Assembly (NCBI GenBank): GCA_051891855.1
Contig: JBJFFP010000082.1
Span: 12,078 to 76,077, forward strand
DNA length: 64,000 nt
Direction: 5' to 3'
Source: Lachnospiraceae bacterium
Lineage (GTDB): Bacteria; Bacillota; Clostridia; Lachnospirales; Lachnospiraceae
Shown: positions 4,690 through 63,652 of the stretch, piece by piece
Layout: each line of letters starts with the position of its first letter
How positions within the stretch are numbered: the stretch's first letter is position 1
Notes under the pieces: generated by a model
What the model was told of the DNA's origin: nothing
The model's input: the letters and a program-made list of their open reading frames with translations, nothing else
Database searches by the model: none
Position numbers and translations under genes: made by a program

Positions 4690-6906
4690 GTGAAAAAGAT
4701 ATCGTTTGTTGGAAGGATATGGCACATAGTCAATATATTGATTGTGATGCAGGGCATATTACTTGCCCTGCCCACAATATTTTTTCTTAATAGGCGGTAT
4801 ATGGCGGCCTGGAAAAACTATTTAAATGAAAACAGCAGTATAGTGATCTATTTACGAGACACGTCTAGGGAGAGTAAGCAGGATATAGAAAAATATATTT
4901 ATGAAAAGTCGGCAGAAGAGGATTTATTGATTGCAAGAAGAGATTCTTTGCTGAAAAATGACGGAAGCTTTTTAGGATATAAATTTGGTATCTTCGGAGA
5001 AACTTCATATGTGGATACGCGAATGACGTTTATGGGAATAGATGTTGTAAGTTCCGTACAGATAGACCAGCTGCTTACTTCATCGAACAGGGAAAGTACT
5101 CTGGGAGTGGATGATGGTAGCATAAATATGCTTACGGATATTTCCCGATTTCGTTTTGGGGAAAAGATTGTAATAAAGAAATTATCGCAGATAATCGCAG
5201 AAAGTGATACTGTAAATGGAATATACATAGTGAACGGGCAGCCGGAGGCTTCGGATAAATTTTTAAGCGGATTAGAAGAGATCACAGGAATATCAAAGGA
5301 TAAATTACTGACACCAATGAGCGGTGAAGTACAGGATGACAGTTTTGCCAGAGATATTTTGCTTGCATTTTTAGCAGCTCAAATCATTCTGAATACAGTT
5401 GCATTGCTTGTGCTTACTATGCAAAATCTTGACAAGCAAGGAAAACTGGCATTGTTAGGCTGGTCAAAAGGTGCATTCATATGGGGGATTTTTGAAAAGA
5501 ATTTTTTCTTTACCCTTGGGTGTATTCCCGCGTTGGTAATTGCAGGATATTTTCTTTCAGGATGGAATCGGATATCTGTAACGATATTCAGTTTTTTTAT
5601 GCTGTCAGCCTTGATTAACGTGTTACTCATAGTGCTGGAAATAATGACAGCTTCAATCGTAATCGTTCTGACAAGGCCGATTGATGCCATAAGGGGGAGG
5701 ATACCTAAACAGCCCCTTTATATTCTGGGAATTGTCGGCTATCTTCTGCTTAGTGCATGTCTGGTTTTTGGAGGGAGCTATGTAGATCAGCCGATTCAGT
5801 ATATATCAGAAAATATGAAGCTAAAAAAACAGTGGGAAAGTGTAGAGAGGTATGAAATTCTTAATACAATTTCCGTAGGAGAAGATTCAGATTCTTTTGC
5901 CGGGCGTTCAAATCAGCTAAATCAGGATATTTATAACTGGTATTCAGACATTGCGGATAAAGACGGTGTATACCTTGTCAACACGACGTATTATGATGAT
6001 GAAGTTTTAGCATTATGGAAACAGAGTCATTTTTACCAATCCGTCCCAGATGAACCATTCTGGTATTATGCAGTATCACCGAATTATCTGGAACAGCTGG
6101 GAATCCATGTGGAGGAGAACATACTTTCCAAAGCAAAAAATGGAACCAGGATATACCTTTTCCCCGAGAATATGACGAAGAAAAGTCGTGAAGAAATGAA
6201 AGGCTGGATTGAAGAGAATACTACGAAAAATCTCAGTAGTGCTGATATTCAGACAGAGTTTACAAAGCATCCTGAATTTGATTATGTGGATTACCAGGCA
6301 GAAACAGAGCTTTTTACATGGTCAGCGATGTCGAAGTATTCTTCAACAGTCAAAGATCCGGTTATATATATAGCAACACCCGAGAATATGAGATATTTTG
6401 AGACAGAGAGTCTGAGAGCAAACGGCTTTAACGGATATATAAAATTTTCGGATAGAGAAACTAAAGAACTCTACACAGCTGAATCTGAATTTGCCCGATA
6501 TAATTTATCTGATAATAAAATTGTATTTTCAGAGGTAAAAAGCTATATTGATGGGTTACAAAAAGAGTTGTGGGTAACCATGTCATGGTTTGGGATTGTA
6601 TTTTTGATTCTACTCTTTATTTTACTTGGACTGCTACTTATCCTGGCAACGATTTTTCGGGTCGCAAATCAGGAAAAAATAAATGTAAAAAAGTTTTTGG
6701 GATTCAATTTCTGGCAGCTTTACCGGGGACCGATTCTGTTCCTTGTAAGTGTGACCGTTCTTGAGCTTATTACAATGCTGATCCTGCACTCTAAATTCGG
6801 ATTTCTTTTAATGCTGCTGATTTTCCTGCTACAGGCAGCGATTTTTACAAAATATATGTCACGAAATGAACTTAGAAGAGTGTTATCAGCTTTTAAAGGG
6901 GAGTAA
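4690..6906 (+). CDS. Bacteriocin-associated integral membrane protein (DUF1430 / FtsX-like permease of Lcn972 loci)
   Basis: 738 aa with a GTG start. N-terminal TM helix, large extracytoplasmic segments, and TM clusters mid-protein and at the C-terminus. Its position between the Lcn972-like gene and an ABC ATPase matches the known operon layout. Confidence 0.7.
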   Translation: MKKISFVGRIWHIVNILIVMQGILLALPTIFFLNRRYMAAWKNYLNENSSIVIYLRDTSRESKQDIEKYIYEKSAEEDLLIARRDSLLKNDGSFLGYKFGIFGETSYVDTRMTFMGIDVVSSVQIDQLLTSSNRESTLGVDDGSINMLTDISRFRFGEKIVIKKLSQIIAESDTVNGIYIVNGQPEASDKFLSGLEEITGISKDKLLTPMSGEVQDDSFARDILLAFLAAQIILNTVALLVLTMQNLDKQGKLALLGWSKGAFIWGIFEKNFFFTLGCIPALVIAGYFLSGWNRISVTIFSFFMLSALINVLLIVLEIMTASIVIVLTRPIDAIRGRIPKQPLYILGIVGYLLLSACLVFGGSYVDQPIQYISENMKLKKQWESVERYEILNTISVGEDSDSFAGRSNQLNQDIYNWYSDIADKDGVYLVNTTYYDDEVLALWKQSHFYQSVPDEPFWYYAVSPNYLEQLGIHVEENILSKAKNGTRIYLFPENMTKKSREEMKGWIEENTTKNLSSADIQTEFTKHPEFDYVDYQAETELFTWSAMSKYSSTVKDPVIYIATPENMRYFETESLRANGFNGYIKFSDRETKELYTAESEFARYNLSDNKIVFSEVKSYIDGLQKELWVTMSWFGIVFLILLFILLGLLLILATIFRVANQEKINVKKFLGFNFWQLYRGPILFLVSVTVLELITMLILHSKFGFLLMLLIFLLQAAIFTKYMSRNELRRVLSAFKGE

Positions 6907-6913
6907 TGGTATT

Positions 6914-7576
6914 ATGATAAAAGCGGTAGAAGTAAAAAATATATCCAAAAAATTTGGCTCGCGTATAATCTTTGAAAATATCAGTTTTTCTATTCTTCAA
7001 GGAGAATTTGTTGCCTTGGTCGGACCATCAGGATGTGGAAAATCTACATTATTAAATATGATTGGTGCCCTTGAAACTTATGATAAAGGGAAAATAATGA
7101 TTTACGGAAAACGTATGCCTAAAATTGAAAGCAGGGAAGCCGCATATTTGCGGAGAAATACGATTAATTATCTATTCCAGTCATCTGCACTGATAGCAGA
7201 GATGACTGTTTCACAGAATCTCTATCTGGCAATGAATTTTGTGGATTGCTCCAGAAGGGAAAAGCTTGGGCAAATTGAAGAAGTGCTGCAAAAAGTAAAC
7301 CTTTTGCCTTTAAAAGATGCAAAAGTAAATACATTATCAGGAGGAGAGCAGCAGAGAGTAGCACTGGCACGAACACTGGTAAAGCCGGGAGATTTGGTTC
7401 TGGCGGACGAACCTACGGGAGCCCTTGATTCTGTGTCAGCAGACAATTCTTTTGAGCTTCTGAGAAATCTGTCCGGAAAGTATAACAAAACGGTGATTAT
7501 GGTGACCCACAGTACTATAATGGCAGAGCGGGCGGAAAGAATCATTGACATGGAAGAATTAAAGGGTAAAAGATAA
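6914..7576 (+). CDS. ABC transporter ATP-binding protein (bacteriocin immunity/export partner)
   Basis: Walker [10 protein letters not shown], signature LSGGEQQRVALAR, Walker B LVLADEPT. The ATG at 6914 (MIKAVEVKNISKKFG) is preferred over the overlapping 6866 start. Confidence 0.9.
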   Translation: MIKAVEVKNISKKFGSRIIFENISFSILQGEFVALVGPSGCGKSTLLNMIGALETYDKGKIMIYGKRMPKIESREAAYLRRNTINYLFQSSALIAEMTVSQNLYLAMNFVDCSRREKLGQIEEVLQKVNLLPLKDAKVNTLSGGEQQRVALARTLVKPGDLVLADEPTGALDSVSADNSFELLRNLSGKYNKTVIMVTHSTIMAERAERIIDMEELKGKR

Positions 7577-7615
7577 TTACAAAGTTCCCAGCGTTCATTG
7601 TAATTTGAACAGTAG

Positions 7616-7648
7616 AAAAACCGGAAAATGGATTTCCGGTTTTTCTTT
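7616..7648 (+). terminator. Rho-independent terminator of the bacteriocin operon
   Basis: AAAAACCGGAAA (7616-7627) pairs with TTTCCGGTTTTT (7633-7644) and a T-rich tail follows. Confidence 0.85.
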
Positions 7649-7680
7649 ACAAATAAGATAAGATTAATCCCGGATTCCCC

Positions 7681-21295: not shown

Positions 21296-21604
21296 TAGAC
21301 AAAGATAACGACAGGGAGGAGTACAAAGTGCTTCTTGCCAGAGAGAGGAGCCCATAGGCTGGAAGGCTCCCCCAAGTAAGGCTTTTGGAAGGTAGCCCTG
21401 GAATCGGAAGGCTGAACAGGACGAGAGGGAATCAGTAGGCTTTCACGGGTCATCTCCGTTATCCGATGGAGCTTTCCGGCTGCCTGCCGGGAACCGAAGA
21501 GACCTTCTTGCGGGCTTGTGTAACGAGCTTCGGGACAGGTGAACAAAGGTGGTACCGCGTTAACTACGCCCTTTGACTGAGTAATCAGTCAAAGGGCATT
21601 TTTG
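21296..21604 (+). promoter_or_regulatory. T-box leader (tRNA-sensing riboswitch) with intrinsic terminator, upstream of valS
   Basis: T-box sequence AAAGGTGGTACCGCG at 21545-21559. AGTA and AGAGA stem-I elements lie near 21320 and 21340. The terminator GCCCTTTGACTGA / TCAGTCAAAGGGC plus T-run spans 21568-21604. Several GUA triplets could be the Val specifier, and I cannot fix which one. Confidence 0.85.
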
Positions 21605-57800: not shown

Positions 57801-59009
57801 ATGGTAAAAGTAGCTGTATTGGGATACGGAACCGTAGGAAGCGGTGTTGTAGAGGTATTAGAACAAAATAAGGAAAAGATTAATCAGCGTGCTCTGGAAG
57901 AGGTGGAGCTTAAGTACATTCTGGATTTAAGGGATTTTCCCGGGGATCCTTACGAAAATAAAGTGGTTCATGACGTAGAACTGATTCTGAATGATCCTGA
58001 AATTCAGGTGATTTGTGAAACTATGGGTGGTATTGAGCCGGCCTATACCTTTTCCAAAAGAGCATTACTTAGCGGAAAGAGTGTATGCACCTCTAATAAG
58101 GAGCTGGTGGCAGCTCATGGACCGGAGCTGTTAAGGCTGGCAAAGGAAAATAAATGTAACTACCTGTTTGAGGCCAGTGTGGGAGGAGGAATTCCCATCA
58201 TCCGCCCCATGAACTACTCTCTTACGGCAGAAGAAATTGATTCCATTATTGGTATTTTAAACGGAACGACCAACTATATTTTAACGAAGATGGATAGGGA
58301 AGGTGCTGATTTTGAGGACGTATTAAAGGAAGCACAGGAAAAGGGGTATGCGGAAAAGAATCCCCAGGCAGATGTGGAGGGCTATGATGCCTGCCGTAAA
58401 ATTGCCATTCTTTCTTCTTTAATGACAGGAAAATATGTAAAGTATCAGGATATTTATACGGAAGGGATTACCCAAATTACGGCCCGGGATTTCCAATATG
58501 CCAAATTAATGAATAAATCCATTAAGCTGTTGGCAATGAGTAAGGAAACACCGGATGGATATATGGCTATGGTCTCTCCCTGCCTGATTGACTGTGAGCA
58601 TCCACTCTACAGTGTGCGGGGAGTATTTAATGCCGTTTTTGTACATGGTAATATGCTGGGAGATTCCATGTATTACGGAAGAGGAGCAGGAAAGCTGCCC
58701 ACAGCAAGTGCGGTGGTTTCCGACATCATCGACTGTGCAAGACATATTGGGAAAACGGTGACCTGTATCTGGGAGGAAGAGGAAGTTAAGCTGATGGATT
58801 TTGAACAATCCCAAAGAAGATTTTTCCTTCGGGTGAAGACGGAAGGTATGGATAAGGCAAGGCAGCTGTTTGGTTTTTCTGAAATCTTGGAAGTGGCTGA
58901 AGGAGAATTTGGATTTATTACATCGGTGCTTACAGAAGGGGAGTTTAAGAAAAGAGCCGGTCAGCTTCCGGAAATGATTAGCCGTATCCGTATTGAGGAG
59001 CAGCAGTGA
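57801..59009 (+). CDS. hom: Homoserine dehydrogenase
   Basis: N-terminal Rossmann fold VAVLGYGTVGSG. Catalytic-domain motifs NGTTNYILT and EADPxxDVEG-like (EKNPQADVEGYD). C-terminal ACT-like region. Confidence 0.9.
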   Translation: MVKVAVLGYGTVGSGVVEVLEQNKEKINQRALEEVELKYILDLRDFPGDPYENKVVHDVELILNDPEIQVICETMGGIEPAYTFSKRALLSGKSVCTSNKELVAAHGPELLRLAKENKCNYLFEASVGGGIPIIRPMNYSLTAEEIDSIIGILNGTTNYILTKMDREGADFEDVLKEAQEKGYAEKNPQADVEGYDACRKIAILSSLMTGKYVKYQDIYTEGITQITARDFQYAKLMNKSIKLLAMSKETPDGYMAMVSPCLIDCEHPLYSVRGVFNAVFVHGNMLGDSMYYGRGAGKLPTASAVVSDIIDCARHIGKTVTCIWEEEEVKLMDFEQSQRRFFLRVKTEGMDKARQLFGFSEILEVAEGEFGFITSVLTEGEFKKRAGQLPEMISRIRIEEQQ

Positions 59010-59023
59010 GGAGTGTGATGAAC

Positions 59024-60244
59024 ATGAAATATATTATTGTTTTAGGAGACGGCATGTCGGATGAGCCTATTACTTCCCTGGGAGGAAAAACTCCCTTGGC
59101 TTATGCCGATACGCCCACATTGGATAAATTAAGCAAAAAAAGTGAAATCGGTCTGGTGCAGACTGTACCGGAGGGAATGAAACCGGGTTCAGATACAGCC
59201 AATCTGGCAGTGATGGGGTATGACCCCAAAATATACTATTCGGGACGTTCTCCCTTGGAGGCTTTAAGCATCGGCGTGCCTATGGAGGATGATGATATTG
59301 CCATACGCTGTAATATTATTACTGTTTCCGAAGACGATGTACCCTTTGAAGAGCAAAGGATTATCGACCACAGCTCGGGAGAAATCAGCACTCAGGACTG
59401 TGCTCAGCTTCTGGAAGCAGTAAGAAAAGAACTGGAAGGAAACGGCTACTCTTTTTATTTGGGAACCAGCTACCGACACTGTCTGATTTGGAAAGGGGGA
59501 GAGGTGGTTGAGCTGACTCCACCCCATGATGTACTTACCCAGAAGGTAGGTGACCATCTGCCTGCAGATCCGGTGCTTCGGGAAATGATGAAAAAAAGCT
59601 ATGAAATTTTGAAGGATCATCCCCTTAACAGGGAAAGAAAGAAGCAGGGCCTTAATCCGGCTAACTGCTGCTGGTTTTGGGGAGCAGGAACCAGACCCGC
59701 ACTGAAGAATTTTCGGGAAAAAACAGGAAAAAAGGGTATGGTGATTTCTGCGGTGGATCTGCTTAAGGGAATTGCAAGGGGAGCAGGAATGGAAGCCCCC
59801 GTAGTGGAAGGAGCCAACGGAGGCCTGCATACCAATTATGAAGGAAAGACGAAGCGGGTAATAGAGGCCTTGTGTCGGGAGGATTATGATTTCGTTTATT
59901 TACATGTAGAAGCCCCGGATGAAATGGGACATCAGGGAAGTGTGGAACGAAAGGTTGAGGCTATCGAATATCTGGATAAGCGGGTATTAGGGCCTTTAAC
60001 TAAGACACTAAAGGAAGAAAAAGTAGATTTCAGACTGCTTGTGCTTCCTGACCACCCTACGCCCGTAAGGGTAAGAACCCATACCTCCGACAGTGTACCC
60101 TATCTTCTGTATGACAGTACGTCCGAAGGGGATTACCAATGGAATTACAACGAGGAAGAGGCAAAAACAAGCGGCAGATATATTGCAGAGGGGTATACCC
60201 TGATTGACAGACTGTTTGAAACAACGGAGGTTATTGAATCATGA
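59024..60244 (+). CDS. ApgM-type cofactor-independent phosphoglycerate-mutase-family (alkaline phosphatase superfamily) protein; possible non-canonical homoserine kinase
   Basis: MKYIIVLGDGMSDEP N-terminus and EAPDEMGHQG metal-site motif. Embedded between hom and aspartokinase with overlapping stop/start codons. Confidence 0.8.
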   Translation: MKYIIVLGDGMSDEPITSLGGKTPLAYADTPTLDKLSKKSEIGLVQTVPEGMKPGSDTANLAVMGYDPKIYYSGRSPLEALSIGVPMEDDDIAIRCNIITVSEDDVPFEEQRIIDHSSGEISTQDCAQLLEAVRKELEGNGYSFYLGTSYRHCLIWKGGEVVELTPPHDVLTQKVGDHLPADPVLREMMKKSYEILKDHPLNRERKKQGLNPANCCWFWGAGTRPALKNFREKTGKKGMVISAVDLLKGIARGAGMEAPVVEGANGGLHTNYEGKTKRVIEALCREDYDFVYLHVEAPDEMGHQGSVERKVEAIEYLDKRVLGPLTKTLKEEKVDFRLLVLPDHPTPVRVRTHTSDSVPYLLYDSTSEGDYQWNYNEEEAKTSGRYIAEGYTLIDRLFETTEVIES

Positions 60245-61560
60245 AAAGAGTAGTAAAATTCGGTGGAAGCTCCCTTGCCAGTGCACAGCAGTTTATGAAG
60301 GTGGGAGAGATTATCCGTTCCCAGGAGGACCGTAAATATGTGGTTCCTTCGGCACCGGGTAAACGCTTCGATGGAGATACCAAGGTTACGGATATGCTCT
60401 ATGACTGCTACCGTACAGCAGAGGAAGGAAAGAATTTTTCCGATAAGCTAAAGGCCATAAAGGCAAGATATGATGAAATCATCGCCGGATTACAGCTGCC
60501 TTTATCTTTGGACAGTGAATTTAAAACTATTGAAACGAATTTTCAAAAGCAGGCGGGTGAAAATTATGCAGCCAGCCGTGGGGAATATTTGAACGGAATT
60601 ATTATGGCGGACTATCTTGGCTTTGCTTTTGTGGATGCGGCGCAGGTTATCTTTTTTAAGGAAGACGGAACCTATGATGAAGAAAAAACAAAAGAGATTC
60701 TGGCTGCGGAGCTTTCTAAACATGACAGAGCTGTCATACCTGGATTTTACGGAAGCCTTCCCGATGGTACGGTAAAGACCTTTTCCCGTGGGGGATCGGA
60801 TATTACCGGTTCCATTGTGGCTCAGGCCGTACATGCGGATGTTTATGAAAACTGGACGGATGTTTCCGGCTTTTTGATAGCAGATCCCAGAATCATTCAC
60901 CAACCCGTCGGGATTGAGACTATCACCTATAAAGAATTGCGGGAGCTGTCTTATATGGGGGCAACGGTTCTTCACGAGGAGGCTATTTTCCCGGTAAGAA
61001 AAGAGGGGATTCCCATTAATATCCGTAATACCAATAAGCCGGAGGATAGCGGAACCTGGATTGTGGAAAGCACCTGCCAGAAATCCAAATATGTGATTAC
61101 CGGTATTGCCGGAAAAAAAGGCTTTTGTGCCATCAATATTGAAAAGGATATGATGAATTCGGAAATCGGATTTGGCAGAAAGGTATTGAATGTATTTGAA
61201 GATAATGGAATTTCCTTTGAGCATGTCCCCTCCGGTATAGATACTCTTACGGTTTTCGTTCACCAGGATGAGTTTATGGATAAGGAGCAGCAGGTGGTTA
61301 CCGGAATCCATCGCTTGGCTAAGCCGGATACCATCGATATTGAGGCAGACCTGGCATTAATTGCCGTTGTGGGAAGAGGAATGAAGTCTACCCGGGGTAC
61401 AGCAGGAAGAATTTTCTCTGCATTGGCTCATGCTAAAGTAAACGTGAAGATGATTGATCAGGGCTCCAGCGAGCTGAATATCATTATTGGTGTTACCAAT
61501 GATGATTTTGAAGCAGCCATTCGTGCTATTTATAATATGTTCGTAGAACCAATCCTGTAA
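60241..61560 (+). CDS. Aspartate kinase
   Basis: VVKFGGSSLA kinase motif and two C-terminal ACT domains. The start overlaps the stop of the preceding gene. Confidence 0.92.
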   Translation: MKRVVKFGGSSLASAQQFMKVGEIIRSQEDRKYVVPSAPGKRFDGDTKVTDMLYDCYRTAEEGKNFSDKLKAIKARYDEIIAGLQLPLSLDSEFKTIETNFQKQAGENYAASRGEYLNGIIMADYLGFAFVDAAQVIFFKEDGTYDEEKTKEILAAELSKHDRAVIPGFYGSLPDGTVKTFSRGGSDITGSIVAQAVHADVYENWTDVSGFLIADPRIIHQPVGIETITYKELRELSYMGATVLHEEAIFPVRKEGIPINIRNTNKPEDSGTWIVESTCQKSKYVITGIAGKKGFCAINIEKDMMNSEIGFGRKVLNVFEDNGISFEHVPSGIDTLTVFVHQDEFMDKEQQVVTGIHRLAKPDTIDIEADLALIAVVGRGMKSTRGTAGRIFSALAHAKVNVKMIDQGSSELNIIIGVTNDDFEAAIRAIYNMFVEPIL

Positions 61561-61589
61561 AGCAGCAGATTAATACAGATAAAATAAGG

Positions 61590-61628
61590 AATAGACCCAT
61601 GAAATAGCTCATTTCGGGGTCTATTTTA
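61590..61628 (+). terminator. Hairpin after the aspartokinase gene (probable terminator, short U tract)
   Basis: AATAGACCC (61590-61598) pairs with GGGTCTATT (61618-61626), followed by TTTAAA. Confidence 0.45.
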
Positions 61629-61707
61629 AATTAAGACTCTAAATTGAGTGGAAATTAGGATAAAATAACAAAAAAGACAAAAAATTAAAATATTTAAAAG
61701 AAAATTG

Positions 61708-61735
61708 TTGACAAATTATTTTTGGGTGCTATAAT
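61708..61735 (+). promoter_or_regulatory. Near-consensus extended -10 sigma-A promoter with no gene behind it
   Basis: TTGACA (61708-61713), 16-bp spacer, TGc-TATAAT (61727-61735). About 70 bp of A/T-rich UP-like DNA lies upstream. Confidence 0.7.
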
Positions 61736-61741
61736 AAAACC

Positions 61742-62211
61742 ATAAACAAAAGAGAAAAGAAAAGAAGAGAAGATACTCAAGAGGAAAATGAGTAAATACG
61801 AAAGAAAGGAAGGTACGGACCACCAAAAACTTAAGTTCACCTTAGTTTGACAGAAACCGAATTCATGAATGGTACATAGAGCTTTCCTTAGGTACAGAGG
61901 ATTCAGATTAAAGTACAAAAGATAAAATACTTCAGAAATACCAATTCTGAAGCGAAGACAGTGAAAGAGAATCGGTTTCAAGGCTTATGGGTGAGAGCCT
62001 CAATGGGATTGGACTTTCAGTACATCAGTTAAGGTAATGGTAAGCCGATATGGCACATTACAGTACTAGGGGTACGGATGAAGATGGAACGAAGACAAAG
62101 CACAAGTAAATAGGGAACAAAGTGAGAAGGAAGAGATGGAGGGTAGGCCATTGGAAATCACAATATAGAGGCGGGTATCGATAAAATAGATTGATACCCG
62201 CCTCGAATTTT
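61742..62211 (+). ncRNA. Predicted ~470-nt purine-rich non-coding RNA of unknown family
   Basis: Bounded by the consensus promoter and a strong intrinsic terminator. The longest + strand ORFs are 18 codons or fewer and lack a usable SD. Internal hairpin: 61930-61937 pairs with 61945-61952. Long-range helix: 61853-61860 pairs with 61972-61979. Seven GTAC cores, and the exact 8-mer GGTACGGA occurs at 61812 and 62071. Confidence 0.5.
62168..62211 (+). terminator. Rho-independent terminator of the orphan RNA
   Basis: GAGGCGGGTATC (62168-62179) pairs with GATACCCGCCTC (62193-62204), followed by GAATTTTGTT. Confidence 0.75.
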
Positions 62212-62219
62212 GTTATACT
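62191..62219 (+). promoter_or_regulatory. Promoter candidate for the GH3 gene, nested in the descending arm of the preceding terminator
   Basis: TTGATA (62191-62196), 17-bp spacer, TATACT (62214-62219), with TG at 62211-62212. Confidence 0.55.
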
Positions 62220-62269
62220 GGACAAAAATTGCCTGTCTTCAGACAGGCATAAAGTGTGTAAGATAAAGT

Positions 62270-63652
62270 ATGATCAATAAGAACAGAAGAAGAGTGGATA
62301 ATAGAATGAGTAATAAAGTAAATGGTTATGAGGGATTAAGTCCCGAAGAGAAAAGAGAAATGAGGCGGCAGAGAAGGATACGAAATCTGATCTGGGCATA
62401 CATAGGTCTTATCTTGGTTTTGGCAGGTCTTATTTTGGGAGGAGTGTTTGGTGTACGGGCATTGACCAAGTTCATTGAGGAAAGGCAGGGAAATACTTTC
62501 AGGGAAGAAATCATACCCGAAAGCATACCCGAGAGCTGGGAGGAAGATGTCCAGTTTATGGAAGAGGAGACAGAGGTGTCGGTACAGCCGGATACATCCC
62601 GTCTTCTGGATGAAATCATAGAAGCCCGCATTTCGGAGATGACTCTGGAGGAAAAGGTGGCGGGCCTTTTCATTGTCAGACCGGAGGATATTACCGGTGT
62701 GGATACGGCCATACAGGCAGGAGAGGGAACAAAGGAAGCCCTGCAGAACCATCCTGTTGGCGGAATTATTTATTTTAATCAGAATATTAAGTCTGAGGAG
62801 CAGATTAAAGAAATGCTGGCAAATACTGCATCTTACAGCAATACCCCTCTTTTTCTGGCAGTGGATGAAGAGGGTGGGCAGGTAAGCCGGCTTGCCCGGG
62901 CATTGAAGCTGGATAATGTAGGAAATATGGCAGATATCGGAGCCACGGGAGACAGCAATCAGGCTTATGAGGCCATGGTAAAGGTGGGAAGCTATTTAAA
63001 CAGCTATGGGTTTAATTTGAATTTTGCTCCTGTGGCAGATGTTTTAACCAATCCAAATAATGAAGCTATTGGGGATCGTTCCTTCGGCGGTGAAACAGGG
63101 GTTGTAGCCGATATGGTAGCAGCGGCAGCAAATGGACTTAAGGATACGGGAATTACTGCATGCTTAAAGCATTTTCCGGGAATCGGTTCTGCAGAGGGAG
63201 ACCCCCATAATGGTCTGGTTGTGGTTGACCGAAGTCCGGAAGAGCTTAAGCAGGAGGAATTGCTTCCTTTTATCAGGGGAATCGAGGAAGGAGTACCCAT
63301 GATTATGGTGGGGCATATTGCCTTGCCACAGATTGTAGGAGATAATACTCCGGCAAGTATGTCATCGGCAGTCATTTCCGATTTGCTCAGGGGAGAGCTG
63401 GGTTTCAATGGAGTGGTGATTACGGATGCTATGGACATGGGAGCCATAACGGAATACTACGGAGCAGACCAGGCAGCAATTATGGCACTTCGGGCCGGGG
63501 CAGATATGATTCTTATGCCGGAGGATTATGAAGTGGCTTTTGAAGGTGTTGTCACAGCTGTTTTAGACGGAACCATCAGTGAGGAAAGAATTAACGATTC
63601 TCTAACCCGAGTATACCGAATTAAATATGCGGATTCGGTAGCTGCGGAATAA
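62270..63652 (+). CDS. Membrane-anchored GH3 beta-N-acetylhexosaminidase (NagZ-like)
   Basis: 460 aa. N-terminal basic segment plus one TM helix. GH3 motifs KHFPGIGSAEGDPH and VVITDAMDMGA. Confidence 0.8.
   Translation: MINKNRRRVDNRMSNKVNGYEGLSPEEKREMRRQRRIRNLIWAYIGLILVLAGLILGGVFGVRALTKFIEERQGNTFREEIIPESIPESWEEDVQFMEEETEVSVQPDTSRLLDEIIEARISEMTLEEKVAGLFIVRPEDITGVDTAIQAGEGTKEALQNHPVGGIIYFNQNIKSEEQIKEMLANTASYSNTPLFLAVDEEGGQVSRLARALKLDNVGNMADIGATGDSNQAYEAMVKVGSYLNSYGFNLNFAPVADVLTNPNNEAIGDRSFGGETGVVADMVAAAANGLKDTGITACLKHFPGIGSAEGDPHNGLVVVDRSPEELKQEELLPFIRGIEEGVPMIMVGHIALPQIVGDNTPASMSSAVISDLLRGELGFNGVVITDAMDMGAITEYYGADQAAIMALRAGADMILMPEDYEVAFEGVVTAVLDGTISEERINDSLTRVYRIKYADSVAAE

Follow-up and report, generated by a model that had tools for sequence, protein, structure and literature searches.

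Between an aspartokinase gene and a GH3 gene in a 64,000-nucleotide stretch of Lachnospiraceae bacterium DNA (contig JBJFFP010000082.1; hereafter the window, meaning the whole stretch analyzed), a gap of 709 bp (61561-62269) very probably holds a member of a real, autonomous, and undescribed RNA family whose members carry a conserved open reading frame (ORF) of five codons, the mini-ORF. A reading of the window made from its letters and predicted ORFs (the sequence-only reading) had proposed an orphan noncoding RNA here, either a large structured RNA of an undescribed class or a protein sponge with repeated RGTAC and GGA sites. The unit is found in about 49 loci, and its members, judged by sequence, make up a previously undescribed family of RNA genes, each with a transcript of its own, in an Acetatifactor/Eisenbergiella-like branch of the Lachnospiraceae. 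Its Shine-Dalgarno (SD) site and five-codon ORF are both conserved, and the class of the element therefore shifts from orphan noncoding RNA to ribosome-engaging RNA. The sequence family is new, and a five-codon ORF placed against a terminator in an RNA that also carries a GUAC array is an unusual arrangement. We tentatively favor its being a ribosome-engaging, dual-function small RNA (sRNA), a model whose chance of being right as a whole we put somewhat short of even.

Promoter, terminator, and predicted transcript

The aspartokinase gene (60241-61560; Pfam AA_kinase and ACT domains), upstream of the gap, has its own terminator hairpin at about 61590-61628, which stands before an A/T-rich, UP-element-like tract (61660-61707, plus strand) and the promoter of the RNA; an equivalent tract precedes TTGACAAAT in the homologues. 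The promoter (61708-61735, plus strand) is of the sigma-70 type, with TTGACA at 61708-61713, a 16-nucleotide (nt) spacer, and TGcTATAAT at 61727-61735. It matches the consensus at 12 of 12 positions, has the TG extension, and scores highest in the scanned region; the sequence-only reading had counted it among the best promoters of the window. TTGACAAAT...TATAAT is conserved in the homologues read. The GC-rich hairpin and U tract that the same reading placed about 470 nt downstream were also found: the intrinsic terminator (62168-62213, plus strand) has a stem of 15 pairs (62168-62204; -24.4 kcal/mol) with GAATTTTGTT after it, ranks first among the terminator-like sites of the region, and shares the first base of its stem with the last base of the stop codon of the mini-ORF. 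The predicted transcript, about 471 nt, runs from 61742 to 62212 on the plus strand, its 5' end placed by the -10 hexamer and a conserved AUAAACAA start and its 3' end by the terminator. Purines make up 66% of the whole transcript and 86% of its first 70 nt, in agreement with the nearly pure A/G composition described earlier; this 5' tail (61742-61811) has a small hairpin (61774-61778/61790-61794), at the position of which other members have a hairpin of unrelated sequence.

That the gap is instead occupied by a minus-strand protein gene, or by the decayed remnant of a gene, has next to no probability. A 95-amino-acid ORF starting with TTG does exist on that strand (61694-61981), but long stop-free minus-strand stretches occur in all 49 homologues, as expected of the complement of purine-rich DNA, tblastn returns only fragmentary low-complexity matches, and the ORF spans the conserved promoter. 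With no conserved protein behind it, this ORF is the composition artifact that the sequence-only reading took it to be, and a minus-strand gene is effectively refuted.

No known RNA class was recognized in the element from its motifs, and database searches agree: at the gathering thresholds of Rfam 15, whose families include RNase P RNA, tmRNA, 6S RNA, SRP RNA, T-boxes, riboswitches, OLE, ROOL, GOLLD, raiA, and HEARO, nothing is found in this region of the window, and the plus strand of 61540-62330 has no match even at E ≤ 10. The consensus-like member L042 likewise has no match, at gathering or at permissive thresholds. Nor did we find a description of this RNA in the literature searched on Lachnospiraceae noncoding RNAs, on minigenes, leader peptides, and terminators, and on dual-function sRNAs.

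Distribution and modular conservation of the family

Relatives were sampled by a scan with the aspartokinase protein, one genome per species, which yielded 80 Lachnospiraceae loci from ruminant, chicken, mouse, and human guts, labeled Acetatifactor, Eisenbergiella, or unnamed metagenome-assembled genomes. The element was found downstream of the aspartokinase gene in 35 of these 80 loci (blastn and nhmmer), the closest relative, L002, being 72% identical over 563 nt. Because a synteny-based search is biased, metagenome contigs were scanned independently of gene context with a pattern drawn only from the core around helices H2 and H3 (described below), GACGTTACAGTACN{3,6}GTACA. Fifteen of the 39 matches fit the family model, 14 of them through the 3' end, and the others are chance matches. 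The conservation that the sequence-only reading left to be checked in relatives is thereby borne out in about 49 loci (35 in genomes and 14 in metagenomes). In the window, the family hidden Markov model matches 61784-62211 (E = 4e-28), in a single copy. No viral contig matched the family, and a phage origin is rejected.

Members range from about 296 to 760 nt because lineage-specific inserts lie between the conserved blocks. These blocks consist of the promoter; the sequence AGAAAGGAGGUAYGGWCCACC in the 5' part; a core of the form GAGUACACAGAAGAAAAAGUAACGA...CGUUACAGUAC-N5-GUACAAAAGAAAAGUGGAAAG; the motif ACAAnUGAAUA, which in the window takes the form ACAAGUAAAUAGGGAAC (62102-62118, plus strand, from alignments); and a 3' block that continues into the terminator.

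Promoter and terminator stay with the RNA although the flanking genes differ between loci. In L004, the aspartokinase gene is separated from the promoter of the RNA by a rubrerythrin-like gene, and in L081 the upstream gene encodes a giant surface protein. On the 3' side, L081 has a Phd/YefM-like antitoxin and ParE/RelE-like toxin pair (6320-6930) between the RNA terminator and the GH3 gene, with 1.5 kb separating RNA and gene; L104, L091, and L083 have NUDIX-like and RNA methyltransferase-like genes downstream and no GH3 gene; and L002 has a serine recombinase gene after the terminator and keeps the RNA without GH3. The L081 and L002 insertions point to a possible insertion hotspot on the 3' side of the RNA gene.

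Several loci have repeats beside the unit. In L003 (5559-5956), the interval from the aspartokinase gene to the promoter of the RNA contains 7.5 copies of a 53-nt unit (89% matches), and in L011 about seven copies of a heptanucleotide, (CAGCAGA)n, follow directly after the terminator (approximately 6480-6530). The window has no tandem arrays apart from (AAGAG)n.

A five-codon ORF abutting the terminator

The sequence-only reading had found no ORF with a properly spaced SD site in the transcript, and this was mistaken. On the plus strand, GGAGG at 62138-62142 stands 8 nt before a TTG start codon (62151-62153) that opens the mini-ORF TTG GAA ATC ACA ATA TAG (62151-62168; M-E-I-T-I-stop), with its stop codon at 62166-62168. 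The statistics that follow are based on the 43 distinct versions of this module among the 49 members, of which the mini-ORF is the most conserved feature.

Most modules have a GGAGG or GAGG core 8 to 10 nt before the start codon, which is TTG in 40, ATG in 2, and GTG in 1. Exactly five sense codons are present in 42 of 43, and in the six-codon exception the stop still precedes the stem; likewise, the 18 nt of the mini-ORF are without indels in 42 modules. Stop codons alternate among TGA (24), TAG (14), and TAA (5), and TGG is never found at codon 6 (0/43, against 17% predicted from column frequencies; naive P of ~3e-4, which takes no account of phylogeny). Over codons 2 to 5, mean entropy rises from 0.44 to 0.68 to 1.12 bits at positions 1, 2, and 3, and synonymous alternation is common (GAT/GAC, GAA/GAG, AGC/AGT, and GTC/GTT/GTA). 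All of the encoded peptides fit M-[D/E/N]-[S/I/T..]-[I/T/E/V..]-[V/F/I]; the second residue is D or E in 41 modules and the fifth is V in 40. MDSIV is the commonest form, and MEITI is that of the window. The distance from stop codon to terminator stem is 0 to 4 nt in 35 of 35 genome loci, and all 14 of the context-blind metagenome matches that cover the 3' end carry the mini-ORF, which lies outside the search pattern. Taken together, the mini-ORF bears the conservation signature of translation.

Two other explanations of the module were considered. In one, the RNA would be purely noncoding, a protein sponge or scaffold or an RNA that self-associates through GUAC, and the mini-ORF would be a motif acting at the level of the RNA, such as an SD-like anchor for the ribosome or 16S rRNA that stabilizes the transcript but is not productively translated. 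TTG is indeed a weak start, here within a conserved palindrome-like CCAUUGG, and the same SD box recurs at the 5' end without an ORF. An RNA motif nevertheless leaves unexplained why the three stop codons alternate but never give way to TGG, why starts are limited to TTG, ATG, and GTG, and why indels are lacking in all but one module while variability peaks at the third base, and we regard the explanation as improbable. In the other, a formyl-Met pentapeptide, M-[D/E]-[S/I/T]-x-V, would itself be the functional product and the rest of the transcript the long regulatory 5' untranslated region of a tiny mRNA. The codon-like conservation, above all at peptide positions 2 and 5, and the strong SD site and promoter would suit such an mRNA, but the clade, narrow as it is, has 19 peptide variants, such an mRNA would leave the conserved body, its helices, and its GUAC array without explanation, and we know of no free-standing five-residue gene product with an established trans function in bacteria; this explanation seems more improbable still.

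The ribosome-engaging dual-function RNA that we favor has a second SD-like feature in its 5' part. The box AGAAAGGAAGGUACGGACCACC (61803-61824, plus strand), the most conserved 5' block, resembles the 3' ribosome-binding site (the two share GGAGGUAYGGWCCA) and has no start codon behind it; it occurs in 39 of 49 members, 40 to 110 nt from the 5' end. Pairing between this box and the 3' SD box, often drawn by RNAduplex, was rejected: inspected by eye, the central GGWCC agrees in about seven members and disagrees in about nine.

Two further candidate ORFs were discarded. Upstream AUGGAAGA, taken as a second ORF, varies in length from 5 to 21 codons, has no SD site, and is in fact the 3' strand of helix H1; a 20-codon plus-strand ORF (61788-61850) has no ATG in L002 or L003, and the conserved block within it is the 5' SD-like box. 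In L072 (approximately 5544-6149), the RNA unit is apparently duplicated in tandem, with two 5' SD boxes and two modules of SD and TTG, the inner of which has a three-codon ORF and no terminator.

A sparse secondary structure

RNAalifold applied to 14 compact members gives three hairpins with compensatory changes; applied to the whole family across the full element, it was uninformative because variable inserts disrupt the alignment. In a 19-sequence alignment, a model of four helices has standard pairs in 92% of cells and double changes at 16 of 34 pairs. None of 500 shuffles equaled these values, and sliding the partners by one to three columns reduced pairing to 33 to 51%.

Helix H1 is long range, and its sequence falls into two classes, UUCUUCCAUU/AAUGGAAGAA and CAUCCAUAU/AUAUGGAUG; it adjoins or overlaps the SD site of the mini-ORF, and both of its strands are absent from the shortest members. 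H2 (62034-62061, plus strand) pairs GUAAUG (62034-62039) with CAUUAC (62056-62061) in the window and is supported by covariation, the family form being GUAACG/CGUUAC and further covariants GUGAUG/CAUCAC and GUAGCG/CGUUAC. Directly after it, H3 (62063-62075, plus strand) pairs two GUAC sites (62063-62066 and 62072-62075) around the loop UAGGG, with 96% of cells paired and a covarying change from GUAC/GUAC to GUAU/AUAC in 4 of 14 sequences. H4 is the terminator, whose stem varies from 11 to 19 bp across the family, begins 0 to 4 nt past the stop codon, and has compensatory changes at 6 of 16 pairs. The 3' hairpins of L064 and L023 are followed by AAACAUUG or AACAAUGU rather than by a U tract, so these hairpins may terminate inefficiently, which hints at a role for the hairpin beyond termination.

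In the window, a lineage-specific insert domain (61853-61979, plus strand) contains three units of about 20 nt, each led by GUACA (61872, 61892, and 61913). Its closing helix, 61853-61860/61972-61979, was among those drawn in the sequence-only reading and is kept in L002 with one compensatory change from A-U to C-G, although the region is variable or absent among compact members. A second hairpin from that reading, 61930-61937/61945-61952, did not hold up, being confined to the window and deleted in L002. Tentatively, GUUCACCUU (61835-61843, plus strand) may serve as an anti-SD strand by pairing with 62140-62148; RNAalifold on two sequences only (window and L002) gives one compensatory and two one-sided changes for this candidate.

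The z scores of minimum free energy are alike on the two strands (-3.55 on the plus strand and -3.80 on the minus strand), and fold energy is therefore uninformative about the functional strand. Overall, the RNA is sparsely structured, with four short supported helices in a sequence that is about 66% purine. The earlier proposal of a large structured RNA of an undescribed class thus stands as to a discrete, undescribed unit with covarying helices, but four short helices do not make an ornate structure.

Repeated GUAC motifs

The window transcript contains seven GTAC sites, every one as RGTAC and at the positions reported earlier, whereas dinucleotide shuffles average 1.05 ± 0.95 sites and all 300 stay below seven. 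In the pooled members of the family, no 4-mer is more enriched than GTAC (126 sites observed, 27.6 expected), and its flanks are purine in 92% of cases at -1 and 88% at +4, giving the context RGUACR. Members have from 1 to about 15 copies of RGUACR at irregular spacings of 7 to more than 100 nt. Copy number grows by local duplication, of the ~20-nt units in the window and L002 and of many AAGUACR units in L005. In L050, which is without the family core, the RNA before GH3 (5433-5650) consists of 6.1 copies of a 36-nt unit carrying the motif, TGAGTACAAAAGTAATATGAAGCACAGAAGAAGTT. The period and copy number of the L050 array match those of ToxI antitoxin RNAs, and no toxin gene follows it. Over the whole 64 kb and on both strands, RGTAC is also overrepresented (158 against 96.7 ± 10.9 in shuffles), and the genome is not GTAC avoiding.

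GUAC sites are predicted to be mostly paired (unpaired probability of 0.26, against 0.56 for the body), and this, together with the enrichment and variable copy number of GTAC, also suits the noncoding explanation discussed above. Only the H3 pair is demonstrably structural. GUAC-GUAC pairing elsewhere was rejected, since inspection by eye shows no covariation among the variants of sites 1, 2, 3, and 6; the non-H3 sites therefore act like a repeated single-strand or weakly paired motif, which fits a multivalent binding platform without proving one.

Of the sponge with RGTAC and GGA sites that had been proposed, the conserved RGTAC enrichment survives, with the qualification that two of the GTACs simply pair with each other. 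The GGA part fails because GGA is not enriched: the 12 triplets counted earlier are indeed there, but 15.2 ± 2.4 are expected in the window, and most members are near expectation. Similarly, the exact 8-mer GGTACGGA is present at both 61812-61819 and 62071-62078 but is not conserved in the nearest relative.

Relation to the downstream GH3 gene

The GH3 gene downstream of the gap (62270-63652) encodes a membrane-anchored protein that resembles beta-N-acetylhexosaminidases. Where the available sequence reaches far enough, a GH3 gene nearly always follows the RNA on its strand, including in metagenome loci with a different upstream gene. In 16 of 33 loci (among them L006, L012, L022, L026, L032, L033, L035, L037, L046, L047, L049, L059, L064, L077, and L080), a conserved element situated 10 to 180 nt past the terminator, ATTTCCTGTRGAAA followed after ~18 nt by TGTAKRAT, looks like a promoter of GH3's own with an operator. 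The equivalent site in the window (62231-62248) is a perfect palindrome, GCCTGTCT-TC-AGACAGGC, followed by TAAGAT at 62259-62264, and this arrangement points to the ATG at 62307, rather than the start at 62270, as the true beginning of the GH3 coding sequence. The element and the palindrome are probably an operator for a regulator.

The sequence-only reading had argued from a GH3 promoter nested in the terminator that the RNA is not simply a 5' leader. The conclusion stands, because genes are inserted on either side of the unit and because the compact subfamily has the GH3 promoter-like element just described; conservation of the nested promoter itself (TTGATA/TATACT, 62191-62219) is limited to the five closest relatives, the element of the compact subfamily being a different one that lies farther downstream.

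These observations bear on the possibility that the RNA is a cis attenuator of GH3 (NagZ-like), of the pyrBI or rph-pyrE type, in which a ribosome on the mini-ORF, following RNA polymerase closely, would occlude the 5' arm of the terminator and so allow read-through from the strong promoter into GH3, with the long upstream RNA tuning access to the SD site. The position of the stop codon, 0 to 4 nt from the stem in every member examined, speaks for such a mechanism, as do the presence of GH3 on the same strand nearly everywhere, even where the upstream gene differs, and the location of H1 beside or over the SD site. Moreover, L050, L057, and L058, which have no family core, keep a strong promoter, a short RNA, a possible four-codon ORF, and a terminator before GH3. 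Yet GH3 has its own conserved promoter-like element in about half of the loci, a toxin-antitoxin pair stands between RNA and gene in L081, and the RNA occurs without GH3 in the L104 group and L002. There is also no antiterminator: the best upstream duplex with the 5' arm of the terminator has -7.8 kcal/mol, against -8.2 in shuffled sequences, and z is below -2 in only 3 of 49 members. Hairpins of -24 kcal/mol and 11 to 19 bp are built to terminate, and the mechanism needs none of the 250 to 650 nt of conserved upstream RNA. On balance, we consider GH3 attenuation unlikely, though the leading alternative to the model that we favor.

The distant relatives L057 (approximately 7490-7650) and L058 (approximately 5395-5560), which include isolate D16-50, have RNAs of ~130 nt directly before GH3, with a consensus promoter, a terminator, and shared UCCAUU...GUACAGAAGAA...GUGGA motifs. 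Their possible four-codon ORF, abutting the terminator, reads GTG GAA GAA AGA TAG or GTG GAG AAA AGA TAA.

The GH3 N terminus (62307-62400; peptide EEKREMRRQRRIRN) forms an arginine-rich cytoplasmic tail before the membrane helix, EEKRE-x-RRQRRIRNQ, and is conserved in the L003 to L006, L050, L058, and L081 homologues. This tail resembles arginine-rich RNA-binding motifs but may simply follow the positive-inside rule.

Other features of the window

The aspartokinase gene is the last of an operon (57801-61560) that encodes homoserine dehydrogenase, a protein resembling cofactor-independent phosphoglycerate mutase (PF10143/PF01676), and aspartokinase, an order typical of clostridial threonine-pathway operons. 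The sole Rfam match in the 64-kb window is a T-box leader at 21299-21576 (plus strand; 96.7 bits against a gathering score of 93).

Comparison with known RNAs

By analogy, the RNA would work most like a dual-function sRNA combined with a leader-peptide or ribosome-occlusion attenuator. With the attenuators (the pyrBI leader and rph-pyrE of Escherichia coli and ermC, cat-86 [MVKTD], bmrB-bmrCD, and vmlR of Firmicutes) it shares a short SD-led ORF just upstream of an intrinsic terminator, where a ribosome at the end of the ORF would cover the 5' arm of the hairpin. It differs from them in lacking an antiterminator, in having an ORF of only five codons, placed last in a long conserved RNA, and in its downstream gene, which comes with a promoter-like element of its own and in some loci lies farther off or is missing. 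Lacking an antiterminator, and with a downstream gene that may not depend on it, the RNA falls outside the attenuator class.

Dual-function sRNAs, such as SR1/SR1P of Bacillus subtilis, RNAIII/hld of Staphylococcus aureus, and SgrS/SgrT of E. coli, are likewise small independent transcripts with their own promoter and terminator and a conserved small ORF, and such an autonomous transcript is found here at the sequence level. The ORFs of the known examples, however, have 26 to 43 or more residues, against five here, where the ORF is wedged against the terminator, and a base-pairing target is known for none of this family.

The 5' SD-like box recalls STAB-SD, a 5' stabilizer reportedly described in the cryIIIA mRNA by Agaisse and Lereclus in 1996. 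Both are SD sequences in the 5' part of an RNA, with extended complementarity to the 3' end of 16S rRNA and no start codon after them, and the present box may likewise stabilize its RNA. The box here differs in lying 40 to 110 nt from the 5' end, in its incomplete distribution, and in duplicating the 3' ribosome-binding site.

Short motifs in variable number, growth by unit duplication, and a layout of promoter, repeats, terminator, and gene are features that the family has in common with the CsrB/RsmZ sponges and the ToxI antitoxin RNAs, and the 36-nt units of L050 (6.1 copies) are like the 36-nt repeats of ToxI. In contrast to CsrB/RsmZ, the motif is RGUACR and not the unenriched GGA; in contrast to sponges and ToxI alike, spacing is irregular, no CsrA-type or ToxN-type partner gene is adjacent, and two GUACs merely pair together. 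The window also departs from a type III antitoxin in having no regular tandem repeats and a downstream gene for a beta-N-acetylhexosaminidase-like GH3 protein, not an endoribonuclease toxin. Finally, the family is long, conserved, autonomously transcribed, and taxonomically restricted, as are the large bacterial RNAs OLE, ROOL, GOLLD, raiA, and HEARO, but unlike them it has no covariance-model match, far less structure, and a translated-looking ORF.

DISCUSSION

In the model that we favor, a very strong promoter would drive a purine-rich RNA whose 3' end forms a complete translation unit. Ribosomes would bind both SD boxes, the 5' box acting like a STAB-SD stabilizer. An initiating ribosome covers about 15 nt past the first base of the start codon, and because of this footprint five codons are approximately the shortest ORF that would allow initiation before a folded hairpin; to reach the stop codon, the ribosome would then have to melt most of the 5' arm of that hairpin. 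Ribosome traffic would thus set the integrity of the hairpin, which during synthesis would decide between termination and read-through and after synthesis would govern exposure of the 3' end and the lifetime of the RNA. The purine-rich RGUACR array would be the likely business end of the molecule, a multivalent platform for a hypothetical partner.

Several points weigh against this model. Translation of the mini-ORF is argued from conservation alone, the statistic for TGG avoidance disregards phylogeny, and the 19 peptide variants show no evident peptide function or specific stalling sequence. The 5' SD box is missing from 10 of 49 members. GUAC sites outside H3 are only moderately conserved and do not covary, past duplications, and not selection for binding sites, may account for part of the GTAC enrichment, and the partner of the array is a supposition of the model. 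In Bacillus-type bacteria, RNA polymerase outruns ribosomes, so that ribosomes could influence termination cotranscriptionally only if the polymerase paused; inspection by eye revealed no NusG-type TTNTTT pause motif. Lastly, the near-constant place of GH3 downstream hints at a link in cis that the model does not explain.

A bolder extension makes the family a new ribosome-sensing class of RNA, in which the mini-ORF would gauge translation capacity, or a ribosome-targeting small molecule, through opening of the 3' hairpin, coupled to the abundance or read-through of the GUAC-array RNA. The array would sequester or assemble a partner, which could even be the arginine-rich cytoplasmic tail of GH3, or would self-associate through its palindromic GUAC sites. 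We offer this extension as speculation that is doubtful at present.

In the gut, Lachnospiraceae belong to the most abundant bacteria, and to our knowledge almost nothing is known of their regulatory RNAs. The family described here is probably abundant, because it is strongly promoted; it is easy to recognize, and its design, a five-codon ORF jammed against the long terminator hairpin of a purine-rich RNA with a repeated motif, is unusual and testable. Noncoding calls that depend on a minimum ORF length miss features of this kind. If translated, the mini-ORF would be among the shortest conserved ORFs in bacteria and would provide a clean system for studying how a ribosome acts on the 3' end of the very RNA that it translates, be it on termination, on stability, or on both.

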